NCBI RefSeq assembly: GCF_003334765.1
Contig: NZ_QOWT01000003.1
Source: Escherichia coli
GTDB taxonomy: Bacteria > Pseudomonadota > Gammaproteobacteria > Enterobacterales > Enterobacteriaceae
Strand: one strand, 5' to 3'
DNA: 64,000 nucleotides
In this document: positions 40,311-48,029 of the stretch, piece by piece
Layout: every line of letters starts with the position of its first letter
Position numbering within the stretch: position 1 is the stretch's first letter
Made by a program: the position numbers and the translations under genes
The notes under the pieces: model-generated
The model's input: only the letters and a program-made list of their open reading frames with translations
What the model was told of the DNA's origin: nothing
Database searches by the model: none

Positions 40311-40321
40311 ACGTAATTGCC

Positions 40322-40356
40322 GGATGCGACGTACGAGTGTTACGCATGTCGCATCC
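40322..40356. terminator. REP-like hairpin between convergent recD and argA
   Basis: ggatgcgac...gtcgcatcc perfect 9-bp inverted repeat. Confidence 0.5.
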
Positions 40357-40371
40357 GACGATTTTCATCGC

Positions 40372-43188: not shown

Positions 43189-43261
43189 TAAAAAGGCGCT
43201 GAATGGCGCTTTTTTATGGGAGACCAGAAACAAAAAAACACCCGTTAGGGTGTTCAATAAT

Positions 43262-43338
<77 letters not shown>

Positions 43339-43351
43339 TCCGTGGATGCGC

Positions 43352-43379
43352 ACTATACTCCGCTCGCGTTTTCATGCAA
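43352..43379 (-). promoter_or_regulatory. near-consensus sigma-70 promoter for the tRNA-fMet gene
   Basis: On the minus strand TTGCAT-16 nt-TATAGT followed by a GC-rich discriminator just upstream of the tRNA 5' end. Confidence 0.55.
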
Positions 43380-43546
43380 CCTTTTTTTTACCCCGATCAC
43401 GGATTTGGCATGATTTTGAACAAAAACAAATCACTAAAGCCTATTTTTTGTGCAAAATTTGCGTCAGGGAGAGGCTGCTCATTTCATTAAACGCGGCGGT
43501 TTGTTATCTTCGTTGCGCCTTATTTTTTAACCTGAAGAAGAGAACA

Positions 43547-44644
43547 ATGAAAGGACGTTGGGTAAAGTACCTTCTTATGGGCACGGTTGTGGCAATGCTT
43601 GCCGCCTGCTCTTCCAAACCAACCGATCGCGGACAGCAATATAAAGACGGGAAATTTACCCAGCCTTTCTCTCTGGTGAACCAGCCAGATGCCGTTGGCG
43701 CGCCGATTAACGCCGGTGATTTTGCCGAGCAAATTAACCATATCCGTAATTCGTCACCGCGTCTGTATGGCAACCAGAGTAATGTTTATAACGCGGTGCA
43801 AGAGTGGCTGCGCGCAGGCGGTGATACCCGCAATATGCGCCAGTTCGGCATTGATGCCTGGCAGATGGAAGGTGCCGACAACTATGGTAACGTGCAGTTT
43901 ACCGGTTATTACACGCCGGTAATTCAGGCGCGCCATACCCGCCAGGGCGAGTTCCAGTATCCTATTTACCGTATGCCGCCAAAACGTGGTCGTCTGCCGT
44001 CTCGTGCGGAGATCTACGCGGGGGCATTGAGTGATAAATATATTCTCGCTTACAGTAACTCCCTGATGGATAACTTCATTATGGATGTGCAGGGTAGTGG
44101 GTATATCGACTTTGGTGATGGCAGTCCGCTTAACTTTTTCAGCTATGCAGGGAAAAACGGTCATGCCTATCGCAGCATTGGTAAGGTGCTGATCGACCGT
44201 GGCGAAGTGAAAAAAGAAGATATGTCGATGCAGGCGATTCGTCACTGGGGCGAAACACACAGTGAAGCCGAGGTTCGCGAGCTGCTGGAACAGAACCCGT
44301 CTTTCGTCTTCTTTAAACCGCAATCTTTTGCTCCGGTGAAAGGGGCAAGTGCGGTGCCGCTGGTTGGTCGCGCGTCAGTTGCCTCTGATCGTTCCATTAT
44401 TCCGCCAGGTACTACCTTGCTGGCAGAAGTGCCGTTGCTGGATAATAACGGCAAATTTAATGGTCAGTACGAACTGCGTCTGATGGTGGCGCTGGATGTC
44501 GGTGGTGCAATCAAAGGCCAACACTTCGATATCTATCAAGGGATCGGGCCGGAAGCCGGACACCGCGCAGGTTGGTACAACCACTATGGACGTGTCTGGG
44601 TGCTGAAAACCGCCCCGGGCGCAGGTAACGTCTTTAGCGGCTGA
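43547..44644 (+). CDS. mltA: membrane-bound lytic murein transglycosylase A (MltA)
   Basis: 365 aa from ATG 43547; lipoprotein signal LLMGTVVAMLAACSS; the 508-aa track ORF reads through the tRNA and is an artefact. Confidence 0.93.
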   Translation: MKGRWVKYLLMGTVVAMLAACSSKPTDRGQQYKDGKFTQPFSLVNQPDAVGAPINAGDFAEQINHIRNSSPRLYGNQSNVYNAVQEWLRAGGDTRNMRQFGIDAWQMEGADNYGNVQFTGYYTPVIQARHTRQGEFQYPIYRMPPKRGRLPSRAEIYAGALSDKYILAYSNSLMDNFIMDVQGSGYIDFGDGSPLNFFSYAGKNGHAYRSIGKVLIDRGEVKKEDMSMQAIRHWGETHSEAEVRELLEQNPSFVFFKPQSFAPVKGASAVPLVGRASVASDRSIIPPGTTLLAEVPLLDNNGKFNGQYELRLMVALDVGGAIKGQHFDIYQGIGPEAGHRAGWYNHYGRVWVLKTAPGAGNVFSG

Positions 44645-44680
44645 TGTGATATTCTGTATGCCGTTTTTACGGATATGACA

Positions 44681-44862
44681 GGGTGAGGGGTAACCTCACA
44701 TCCTGATTATTGACTAAGTGCGCGTTGTTCATGCCGGATGCGGCGTGAACGCCTTATCCGGCCTACAAATCATGCAAATCCAAAATATTGCAGGAGTTAT
44801 GTAGGCCTGATAAGCGTAGCGCATCAGGCATTTATGCGTTTAGGGTGAGGGATAACCTCGCC
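44681..44862. repeat. REP/BIME cluster between mltA and tcdA
   Basis: Two REP palindromes (gccggatgcggcgtgaacgccttatccggcctac at about 44733-44766; gtaggcctgataagcgtagcgcatcaggca at 44801-44830) flanked by direct repeats GGGTGAGGG(G/A)TAACCTC at about 44681 and 44843. Confidence 0.7.
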
Positions 44863-44882
44863 CTTTTTAATTCTGAGGTGCT

Positions 44883-45689
44883 ATGTCTGTGGTAATTAGT
44901 GATGCATGGCGTCAGCGTTTTGGTGGCACAGCGCGTCTGTATGGTGAAAAAGCGTTGCAACTGTTTGCTGACGCGCATATTTGTGTGGTTGGTATCGGTG
45001 GTGTCGGTTCCTGGGCGGCGGAAGCGCTGGCGCGCACGGGGATTGGCGCAATCACGCTTATCGATATGGATGATGTGTGCGTCACCAATACCAATCGGCA
45101 AATTCATGCCCTGCGCGATAACGTTGGGCTGGCAAAAGCGGAAGTTATGGCGGAGCGTATTCGCCAGATTAACCCGGAGTGCCGTGTAACGGTGGTGGAT
45201 GATTTCGTGACGCCGGATAACGTAGCGCAGTATATGAGCGTGGGTTATTCGTACGTGATTGATGCCATTGATAGTGTACGGCCCAAAGCGGCGCTGATTG
45301 CTTATTGTCGGCGCAATAAAATCCCACTGGTCACAACCGGTGGCGCGGGTGGGCAGATTGATCCGACGCAGATTCAGGTTACCGATCTGGCGAAAACGAT
45401 TCAGGACCCGCTGGCGGCGAAGTTGCGCGAGCGCCTGAAAAGCGATTTTGGCGTAGTGAAAAACAGTAAAGGTAAGCTCGGCGTGGATTGCGTGTTTTCT
45501 ACTGAAGCGCTGGTGTACCCGCAGTCAGACGGTACGGTGTGTGCGATGAAAGCCACGGCAGAAGGGCCGAAGCGGATGGATTGTGCATCTGGATTTGGCG
45601 CGGCAACGATGGTGACCGCCACCTTTGGGTTTGTTGCGGTTTCTCATGCGCTGAAGAAGATGATGGCGAAAGCGGCGCGTCAGGGTTAA
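44883..45689 (+). CDS. tcdA: tRNA threonylcarbamoyladenosine dehydratase TcdA (CsdL, E1-like)
   Basis: 268 aa; ThiF/MoeB-type nucleotide-binding motif VVGIGGVGSWAAEALARTG. Confidence 0.92.
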   Translation: MSVVISDAWRQRFGGTARLYGEKALQLFADAHICVVGIGGVGSWAAEALARTGIGAITLIDMDDVCVTNTNRQIHALRDNVGLAKAEVMAERIRQINPECRVTVVDDFVTPDNVAQYMSVGYSYVIDAIDSVRPKAALIAYCRRNKIPLVTTGGAGGQIDPTQIQVTDLAKTIQDPLAAKLRERLKSDFGVVKNSKGKLGVDCVFSTEALVYPQSDGTVCAMKATAEGPKRMDCASGFGAATMVTATFGFVAVSHALKKMMAKAARQG

Positions 45690-45739
45690 ACAATCAGGTC
45701 GGATGAGACGCGAACGTCTTATCCGACCCGGTTCTGTGC

Positions 45740-47823: not shown

Positions 47824-48029
47824 AAAAAAAAGCACCGCAATTAGGCGGTGCTACATTAATCACTATGGACAGACAGGGTAAATGTACAGGAAGTGAAAAA
47901 AGGTAGCTTTGCTACCATGGTCTGAATCGCAGACCAATTGCAAACACAACAACACAACATCACAACCGTAAGCCAAAAGTTCACCAGAACACGCATTCCG
48001 ATAAAACTTTTCGTTCCGGCTCAGGAAGT
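47824..48029 (-). ncRNA. gcvB: sRNA GcvB
   Basis: Reverse complement matches GcvB (ACTTCCTGAGCCGGAACGAAAAGTTTTATCGG...GTTGTGATGTTGTGTTGTTGTGTTTGCAATTGG...GCACCGCCTAATTGCGGTGCTTTTTTT); divergent from gcvA. Confidence 0.9.

Follow-up and report, generated by a model that had tools for sequence, protein, structure and literature searches.

The 238-nt spacer between mltA and tcdA in a 64,000-nt window of Escherichia coli DNA (the window being the whole 64-kb stretch analyzed) holds a bacterial interspersed mosaic element (BIME) of the BIME-1 type, which is bracketed by a direct repeat. This repeat is best read as the predicted intrinsic-terminator hairpin of mltA, present twice. The arrangement probably arose when the BIME-1 inserted at the terminator hairpin and the hairpin was duplicated on that occasion, with later and repeated precise losses of the element that restored the terminator. 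A sequence-only reading of the window had described two repetitive extragenic palindromes (REPs) in opposite orientation in this spacer, inside a direct repeat of about 19 bp, as a REP/BIME cluster and had suggested comparing the locus among strains for presence/absence polymorphism; the evidence below bears out the description, and the polymorphism exists.

Catalogues of REPs and BIMEs in E. coli K-12 go back decades. Being a member of this known class, with published presence and absence among isolates, the spacer element is already known in kind and ordinary; the duplicated hairpin is its one mechanistic lead, of modest interest.

A BIME-1 in the mltA-tcdA spacer

REPs were detected by scanning a head consensus (GCCKGATGCGRCG) and a tail consensus (CTTATCMGGCCTAC) separately on both strands. 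The two REPs of the spacer (Table 1) match both with 0 mismatches and are the sole complete head-plus-tail pairs in the window. The foot tetranucleotide GTAG/CTAC is present in each (CTAC at 44763 to 44766 and GTAG at 44801 to 44804), and the repeat search retrieved the tail of the Y REP and the Z1 REP as an inverted repeat. The Y REP hairpin folds at -21.3 kcal/mol (z -4.8) and the Z1 REP hairpin at -12.9 kcal/mol, and the whole spacer reaches -95.9 kcal/mol (z -6.7 versus shuffles). A query that includes the REPs finds a median of at least 39 places per E. coli genome (about 39 to 40, among the matches listed), whereas a query made of the left flank alone finds 1 place per genome, the left flank (44702 to 44732) being single copy in E. 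coli by megablast. The Y REP also has the GTAG and the stem mismatch described for the REP-associated Y1 transposase, TnpA-REP (PMC3333891).

The sequence between the REPs matches Rfam family RF02751 (ES036/CssrF) with 46.5 bits against a gathering score of 37.6, at 44766 to 44808 and over the full length of the model (positions 1 to 43). This 43-nt model corresponds to the BIME-1 linker, L, plus the GTAG foot of the REP. Against the Rfam naRNA4 model, the Y REP scores 38.2 bits in an alignment to the Y half, below the threshold of 59.5, and the Z1 REP, which is 6 nt shorter than the Z2 half of that model, scores just 17.9 bits. The Z1 label follows from the L linker and the published BIME-1 definition and not from a direct comparison with a Z1 consensus. 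An integration host factor (IHF)-like site at 44778 to 44790 (ATCCAAAATATTG) is degenerate, with 11/13 positions matching the consensus WATCAANNNNTTR, and this does not exceed chance, about 0.43 such matches being expected in the stretch; the BIME-1 family consensus linker matches the same consensus at 12/13. Weak Rfam matches to mir-76, mir-944, Ysr224, HDV, and Twister-sister are far below their thresholds and were disregarded.

A BIME-1 is defined as a Y REP and a Z1 REP around a long L linker, in single copy and frequently with an IHF site in L (PMC3333891). It measures about 140 bp and is present or absent among isolates (Bachellier 1997, as summarized in PMC1187871). The BIME-1/RIP/RIB literature (Gilson 1991, Bachellier 1994, Boccard & Prentki 1993, Oppenheim 1993) was covered through the summaries in PMC3333891 and PMC1187871. 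The spacer element agrees with these descriptions in having a Y and a short Z REP placed tail to tail around the conserved L linker, in being a single unit and not an array, with the constant core of 97 to 98 nt and about 140 to 150 bp when the outer motifs are counted, and in its extragenic position at the 3' end of a gene, where it is present or absent among isolates. It differs from the family in its right outer motif, here cut to 12 nt, and in the IHF-like match (11/13 versus 12/13 for the consensus). By all sequence criteria tested, apart from this weak IHF site and the truncated right motif, it is a BIME-1 (RIP/RIB), and an assignment as one Y REP, one L linker, and one short Z-type REP is supported.

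The predicted mltA terminator hairpin present twice

The direct repeat was recovered by the repeat search with 17/18 identical positions (44680 to 44697 and 44842 to 44859), and the match extends to 18/20 and then to about 18/22 (44680 to 44701 and 44842 to 44863). Copy 2 has a 9-bp stem and a 5-nt loop followed by TTTTTAATTCT, is matched by the terminator scan at 44842 to 44864, and folds at -17.2 kcal/mol (z -4.6). Copy 1, which reads AGGGTGAGGGGTAACCTCAC(AT), folds at -11.3 kcal/mol and is followed by ATCCTGATT, so that it does not qualify as an intrinsic terminator. In E. coli strains with a short spacer, a single hairpin followed by a T-run is present (e.g., ...GACAGGGTGAGGGGTAACCTCACCCTTTTTAATTCTGAGG...), which folds at -17.3 to -17.7 kcal/mol, and a 75- to 77-nt spacer with one such terminator is also found in Citrobacter amalonaticus, C. 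sedlakii, and several Enterobacter species. Copy 2 has the position and sequence of this single terminator of the short E. coli alleles, Citrobacter, and Enterobacter. The T-run (TTTTT) is kept by the downstream copy only, and the single-copy homologues elsewhere also precede TTTTT. The long allele corresponds to a spacer of ancestral type of about 76 nt plus a 162-bp unit that comprises the element and the second hairpin copy. This comparison of long alleles, short alleles, and other genera indicates that the direct repeat is a duplication, with the predicted mltA intrinsic-terminator hairpin present twice. Copy 1 was also considered as an inverted copy of the imperfect palindrome, and this was rejected by hand alignment, with a direct identity of 18/22 versus 14/22 for the inverted one.

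The long left junction occurs in 2,830 of the 5,426 complete E. coli genomes (about 52%), a count that shifts with the megablast threshold (2,755 versus 2,830). An even sample of 30 genomes contained 16 long alleles, 13 short ones, and 1 partial, with only two spacer sizes, 162 bp apart, plus one short variant shorter by 1 bp. The indel between the alleles is bounded exactly by the direct repeat and, at 162 bp, is exactly as long as one repeat period. Directly 5' of tcdA, about half of the E. coli strains thus have an mltA 3' untranslated region that is longer by about 160 nt and has three extra hairpins. The immediate upstream context of tcdA (terminator, T-run, and ribosome-binding site) is the same in long and short alleles.

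The long form is also found in Escherichia albertii and Escherichia sp. E1V33, where the right motif is cut at the same point, which places the insertion before E. coli. The short alleles of E. coli do not form a single haplotype, and each is close to a particular long allele. Over about 480 nt, the flanks of strain 94EC (short) and strain Z1322 (long) show 0/0 mismatches, and both strains have a private GGATACGCC haplotype that lies 7 nt from the hairpin; JNE25 (long) and FFFEB2 (short) differ at 1 left and 7 right flank positions, and ST131 (short) and 11A20 (long) differ at 3 left and 6 right positions. Moreover, crossing over between copies 1 and 2 of a long allele could yield each of the hairpin variants seen in the short alleles, and the ST131 short allele has the derived loop G of copy 1, where other genera and copy 2 have A. 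From the long form in E. albertii and the flanking haplotypes common to short and particular long alleles, we infer that E. coli has repeatedly lost the 162-bp unit, each time precisely, via the direct repeat. Copy 1 of E. albertii (1310 to 1345 of its sequence) reads AGAGTGAGAAATAATCTCGCTCT and folds at -12.3 kcal/mol. It differs from copy 2 by two compensatory pair changes (G-C to A-T, twice) that keep the pairing, which hints that selection or intrastrand correction maintains the upstream hairpin there. In this species, the left outer motif is missing its first 13 nt.

The same spacer is occupied in other genera. In Kosakonia sp. S29, a related element with the same outer motifs and different REPs lies between two copies of the mltA terminator hairpin (spacer at about 1270 to 1500), and in this strain and in Phytobacter diazotrophicus the outer motifs read GCAGATTTTTGACAAAG ... 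GTTGTCAGCAATATCA, with species-type REPs. The Kosakonia element either arose by a parallel insertion at this target or is shared from a very old event. That the two hairpins formed a scaffold predating the BIME was considered for this strain and rejected: the sequence after copy 1 is the left outer motif and the right motif lies beside copy 2, and since both motifs are present, the spacer has a parallel or orthologous insertion and is not an empty scaffold. Unrelated REP/BIME-like insertions were seen in this spacer in Salmonella enterica subsp. arizonae, several Citrobacter spp., and Pseudocitrobacter. The last contains a CCCTCTCCC...GGGAGAGGGTTAGGGTGAGGG repeat that presumably resembles E. 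coli boxC. The mltA-tcdA spacer is a hot spot for small repeats.

Other BIME-1 sites and the possible insertion mechanism

Further BIME-1 sites were collected with a linker-pattern scan of metagenomes, which gave 107 usable instances from about 14 genomic sites, and five sites were added from complete E. coli genomes; one chimeric-looking metagenome contig was left out. The 15 sites retained come from the exact-pattern scan and the best BLAST matches, so that they are a sample and not a census, and some lie on metagenome contigs. No new site was found in about 1 Mb of metagenome contigs scanned. Across sites, the core from Y to Z1 is constant at 97 to 98 nt and is flanked by conserved outer motifs, TCAGATTGTTGACAAAGTGCGCTTTGTTCAT on the left and AGTTTTGCGTTTGTCATCAGTCTCA on the right (consensus of 11 sites), whose outer 15 nt or so are imperfect inverted repeats of each other. 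These motifs are probably the published external motifs of BIMEs (A and B motifs). The final 13 nt or so of the right consensus are missing at mltA/tcdA.

At 9 of the 15 distinct sites, a site-specific G+C-rich hairpin is directly duplicated just outside the outer motifs (mltA/tcdA, fbaA, ysgA/metE, katE/chbG, yccJ/agp, gloC/aspC, sbp/pfkA, mog/satP, and one unnamed site). In seven of these nine, the end of the left copy lies 29 to 31 nt from the Y REP (23 nt in the case of mog/satP) and the right copy begins 24 to 27 nt past the Z1 REP. The right copy starts early at mltA/tcdA (+12) and fbaA (+4), because the right motif is truncated there. True left/right pairs have local-alignment scores of 10 to 28, compared with a mean of 8.8 and a maximum of 13 in 110 cross-site controls; five sites outscore all the controls, and the four with lower scores are recognized mainly by their position and by being hairpins. 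On the displayed strand, a clear T-run follows the Z1-side copy at five of the nine sites; it lies on the other strand at fbaA, and the other three sites are equivocal. Four of the sites other than mltA/tcdA come from complete RefSeq genomes.

Alleles without the element and with a single hairpin were found at four loci (mltA/tcdA, ysgA/metE, fbaA, and yccJ/agp). At ysgA/metE, E. coli is without the element and a related metagenome contig has it. The fbaA locus shows a 167-bp indel with a 37-nt repeat and has the element in 3,724 of the 5,426 genomes, and yccJ/agp shows a 182-bp indel, with the element in 88 of them. These 88 carriers are at least 99% identical to the query, yet 4 of about 29 positions of the upstream hairpin copy differ from the downstream one, which itself agrees fully with the hairpin of the element-less alleles. 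This divergence could stem from import out of a diverged lineage, from errors in the synthesis of the duplicate, or from the survival of diverged repeats only. At ysgA/metE and katE/chbG, the copies differ at paired stem positions (e.g., GGCGTTGCC versus GGTGTTACC), so that both hairpins keep their pairing, and such differences recur across sites. In E. coli isolate 602, the sequence 3' of katE (about 540 to 891) follows the katE/chbG element through the Y REP and into the L linker before diverging, and a gene for an IS621 (IS110-family) transposase is annotated about 115 bp past the end of the BIME-1 match.

For the mltA-tcdA spacer, the events of the probable history would be as follows. The element would have entered at the foot of the terminator hairpin before the split of E. 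coli and E. albertii, and the hairpin would have been doubled in the insertion event as a long, structure-defined target duplication. In a simple model, both strands would be nicked on the same side of the palindrome and the gap filled, giving a duplication of hairpin length. The most likely candidate for the inserting enzyme, as a guess, would be a REP-associated Y1 transposase that nicks both strands at the hairpin foot. With two hairpin copies as direct repeats, slippage or recombination could then remove one 162-bp unit and restore the original terminator. In strains that keep it, the element would be transcribed within the mltA 3' untranslated region, lengthened from about 60 to about 220 nt, where its three stable hairpins could block 3' exonucleases, shield the mRNA upstream, and lessen read-through into tcdA; copy 2 would still be the site of termination.

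More generally, BIME-1 might be a hairpin-targeting mobile element that enters at the foot of a terminator, apparently with a preferred orientation relative to the T-run, duplicates the stem-loop (19 to 37 nt), and can later be excised without a scar, but as a general and previously undescribed property this is a tentative proposal that we would bet against at present. No mention of a duplicated hairpin as a BIME-1 bracket was found in the REP/BIME/REPIN/MITE literature or in the BIME-1 descriptions covered (MITE, miniature inverted-repeat transposable element), and since the key primary papers of the 1990s lay outside that coverage, a prior description is possible. If it is undescribed, the footprint would be the first direct evidence on REP/BIME integration, whose mechanism is called unestablished in a 2026 preprint, and it would suggest that both strands are nicked at the foot of the hairpin, for example by the REP-associated Y1 transposase. 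In any case, the recurrent duplication of terminator hairpins and the single-hairpin alleles at four loci are a concrete footprint that insertion models must reproduce. A duplication that acts as a built-in excision device and regenerates the terminator would also explain why the BIME-1 class is so often polymorphic.

Several points weigh against an insertion with hairpin duplication by a transposase and against the suggested RNA effects. The suggested role at the RNA level is drawn from what is known for other REPs, whose effects vary with their context, as a 2026 preprint emphasizes. At no site are the two hairpin copies identical, and they differ at two to four positions even at yccJ/agp with its 88 carriers, which means either that none of the duplications is fresh or that pairs are retained only if they have diverged. 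The duplicated segment ranges in length from 19 to 37 nt and at times takes in a portion of the T-run. Some sites have truncated outer motifs, among them the right one at mltA/tcdA, so that an imprecise insertion of the replication type fits as well as a transposase with fixed ends. The duplication is absent from 6 of the 15 BIME-1 sites, a set drawn from pattern and BLAST matches and not a census. Finally, the IS200/IS605-type Y1 transposases, which are relatives of the REP transposase, are not known for larger target duplications (PMC2817692).

Template switching during replication, without any transposase, is a serious alternative for the origin of the duplication, although we consider it the less probable one; the identity of the element and its polymorphism would be unchanged. 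A fork stalled at the terminator hairpin would let the nascent strand copy a BIME-1 elsewhere, return upstream, and copy the hairpin again. This is favored by the variable duplicated length (19 to 37 nt), by motifs cut at differing points (the right one at mltA/tcdA and fbaA, the left one at mog/satP and in E. albertii), by a possible microhomology at the fbaA junction, where TTTTGC(T/G)TTTG is common to the right motif and the duplicated segment, and by Y1 transposases normally leaving no larger duplication. However, six to seven sites have the duplication directly beside complete outer motifs, at -29 to -31 and +24 to +27, which looks like defined ends, and the lean of the T-run to the Z1-side copy (five of nine) suggests a strand-specific, enzyme-like process, though selection could also yield it. 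It is improbable that the short E. coli alleles are ancestral sites that were never occupied, with the long allele spread by homologous recombination and no repeated deletion. The short form is indeed the arrangement in other genera, E. coli recombines frequently, and the presence or absence of BIME-1 among isolates is known; against this, E. albertii and Escherichia sp. E1V33 are long and have the same truncated right motif, the flanks of 94EC and Z1322 are identical up to the repeat, so that a gain by recombination needs crossovers inside about 27 nt, and the short allele of ST131 has the derived loop G of copy 1.

Two further explanations have little in their favor. The RF02751 match, being above the gathering score, could mark a gene for an independent small regulatory RNA of the ES036/CssrF type and no repeat, and CssrF was seen by northern blotting in Shigella at dacB/yhbZ (PMC3071730). 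But the 43-nt model is itself BIME-1 linker plus REP foot, the promoter scan found no promoter-like site on either strand in 44300 to 45100, the sequence is absent from about half of E. coli strains, and the same linker occurs at many unrelated 3' ends, which makes such a gene very unlikely. A direct repeat that is an unrelated local duplication or a chance match around the BIME is hardly credible. G+C-rich hairpins are common in spacers, and nothing else speaks for it. A 17/18 match within 238 nt is expected by chance about 2e-5 times (a rough estimate), the indel between alleles is exactly one repeat period, and eight other BIME-1 sites, whose hairpins are unrelated in sequence, show this geometry too, with observed scores of 16 to 28 versus at most 13 in the cross-site controls; an escape into metagenome artifacts is weakened by the four other sites from complete RefSeq genomes.

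Insertion of a BIME-1 at the hairpin, the preferred reading, can be compared with several known systems. The REPINs of Pseudomonas fluorescens (Bertels & Rainey 2011; PMC3116915, PMC3337134) are likewise units of two inverted REPs and a spacer and are nonautonomous, and excisions have been observed for them. One reported REPIN excision had its cuts at the 3' ends of two palindromes, which is analogous to the loss of the element with one hairpin. In contrast to the mltA/tcdA element, REPINs and their RAYT partners involve other REP sequences and another host, and target duplication is unmentioned in a published REPIN account; the repeats that bound the excised unit at mltA/tcdA are host terminator hairpins and not REPs. 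Bacterial MITEs (Correia, ERIC/IRU, Nezha; PMC3184786) resemble the BIME-1 in being small and noncoding, with a long stem-loop fold, direct repeats at the flanks, and alleles that either carry or lack the element, and BIME-1 has imperfect terminal inverted repeats in the family outer motifs, AGATTGTTGACAAAG and, as reverse complement, AGACTGATGACAAAC. MITEs have short, fixed target duplications (2 to 10 bp) set by a DDE transposase, whereas the segment duplicated with BIME-1 measures 19 to 37 nt, varies in length, and is always a whole hairpin. At mltA/tcdA, the right one of the outer inverted repeats of the BIME-1 family (about 15 nt) is missing, and the flanking duplication is not of fixed length across sites. 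According to a review, REPs lack MITE signatures.

The Y1 HUH enzymes of the IS200/IS605 family are relatives of the REP-associated enzyme, which recognizes imperfect hairpins with a GTAG guide and cleaves near the hairpin feet (PMC3333891). A hairpin-defined target would suit such a REP-associated Y1-type enzyme. IS200/IS605 elements insert 3' of a short target sequence and make no larger target duplications (PMC2817692), and, unlike in these elements, no transposase gene lies in or near the mltA-tcdA spacer. Like the BIME-2 array REP325/naRNA4 (bioRxiv 10.64898/2026.03.23.713779), the element is located between tandem genes in the 3' untranslated region of the upstream one, and a REP325-like dual effect, protection of the upstream mRNA and less read-through, would be expected. 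REP325 is an array of 12 Y/Z2 hairpins without an L linker, whereas mltA/tcdA has one Y/Z1 pair followed by a canonical intrinsic terminator, and its naRNA4 match remains below the threshold, as given above.

Single palindromes and gene context

The spacer features and the single palindromes are collected in Table 1. The best matches of the window are RefSeq records of E. coli with 100% identity, and the gene names are backed by the annotation of these matching records. The orientation is opposite to the MG1655 convention, with recD(+), argA(-), amiC(+), tRNA-fMet(-), mltA(+), tcdA(+), csdE(-), and csdA(-), and positions 44645 to 44882 are the entire mltA-tcdA spacer. A tcdA promoter made or split by the insertion was considered at TTGACT (44710 to 44715) and rejected, because the promoter scan was negative and TTGAC is part of the conserved outer motif.

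Table 1. Coordinates of the mltA-tcdA spacer features and of the three single palindromes in the window
Feature	Position	Strand	Basis or remark
mltA coding sequence	43547..44644	+	Stop TGA at 44642-44644; open reading frame list and RefSeq annotation of 100%-identical records
mltA 3' untranslated region		+	Holds both hairpin copies and the BIME-1 parts
Direct-repeat copy 1, upstream copy of the mltA terminator stem-loop, AGGGTGAGGGGTAACCTCACAT	44680..44701	+	Repeat search; T-run absent after it
Left outer motif of BIME-1, CCTGATTATTGACTAAGTGCGCGTTGTTCAT, non-REP, 31 nt	44702..44732	+	26/31 positions match the consensus TCAGATTGTTGACAAAGTGCGCTTTGTTCAT (from 11 BIME-1 sites)
Y-type REP, GCCGGATGCGGCGTGAACGCCTTATCCGGCCTAC, ends CTAC	44733..44766	+	Head and tail consensus, 0 mismatches
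L linker of BIME-1, 34 nt, small internal TGCAA/TTGCA hairpin	44767..44800	+	Rfam RF02751
Inverted short Z1-type REP, + strand reads GTAGGCCTGATAAGCGTAGCGCATCAGGCA, starts GTAG	44801..44830	-	Tail consensus, 0 mismatches
Right outer motif, cut short (with A44830: ATTTATGCGTTT)	44831..44841	+	10 of the first 12 positions match the consensus AGTTTTGCGTTTGTCATCAGTCTCA
Direct-repeat copy 2, AGGGTGAGGGATAACCTCGCCC (44842-44863), and T-run	44842..44868	+	Predicted intrinsic terminator of mltA, 14 nt 5' of the tcdA ATG
tcdA coding sequence	44883..45689	+	Ribosome-binding GAGG at 44875-44878
recD/argA palindrome, REP head (GCCGGATGCGACG) paired with an inverted REP head	40319..40359		-22.5 kcal/mol, z -4.1
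tcdA/csdE palindrome, single degenerate Y-like REP (GTCGGATGAGACG..CGTCTTATCCGAC), no CTAC tail	45697..45730		-25.0 kcal/mol, z -6.2
fucO/xni palindrome, REP head fused to ATCCGGC	58879..58908		-20.4 kcal/mol, z -4.4

The sequence-only reading had also listed similar single palindromes at the recD/argA, tcdA/csdE, and fucO/xni junctions. These exist at the places given and fold well, but they are REP-derived and not canonical REPs, since only the head matches (0 to 2 mismatches) and the tail consensus and the GTAG/CTAC foot are absent from all three. With their flanks, each has one place per genome by megablast and is found in essentially all E. coli genomes. The recD/argA palindrome has REP head matches on both strands and no tail. 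Strain FP4 has a form longer by 20 nt, with a Z-type REP, GCCTGATGCGACGCATGTGGGTCTTATCATGCCTA, and an inverted partial REP, and 755 genomes in the 80 to 90% identity band are of this longer type. The fucO/xni palindrome also has head matches on both strands. In strain GIMC1410, this locus reads GCCGGATGCGACGCTAGCCGCGTCTTATCCGGC + ATATAAGTGCATTAAATTCAATGTGTTGATAA... + GCATCCGGC, that is, a canonical REP followed by an L-like linker and part of a second REP, and the palindrome of the window is a form of this arrangement shorter by 50 nt. The tcdA/csdE palindrome has a head with two mismatches and a 14-bp perfect stem that is kept with changed base pairs, and gives a weak match to naRNA4 (26.9 bits, E 0.41). 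This palindrome is found in all 5,426 genomes with small indels only; those at recD/argA and fucO/xni vary in length between strains (20 nt and 50 nt), the longer forms having the more complete REP/BIME structure. From these features, the three single palindromes read as decayed REP/BIME remnants at the 3' ends of convergent genes, and most likely they would act as bidirectional 3'-end hairpins. Published work ties REP-derived hairpins between convergent genes to such a bidirectional 3'-end function (2026 preprint).

Two other features of the neighborhood were noted. A single initiator tRNA-Met gene (tRNA-fMet, 43262 to 43338, minus strand) lies between amiC and mltA (43189 to 43546), compared with three in tandem in MG1655 (metZ, metW, and metV). 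The amiC-mltA spacer is shorter than that of MG1655 by 220 nt, equal to two 110-nt repeat units, and is a second repeat-mediated difference in copy number nearby. The gene of the small RNA GcvB is found at 47824 to 48029 on the minus strand (Rfam RF00022, 199 bits), a known gene in its expected place beside gcvA.

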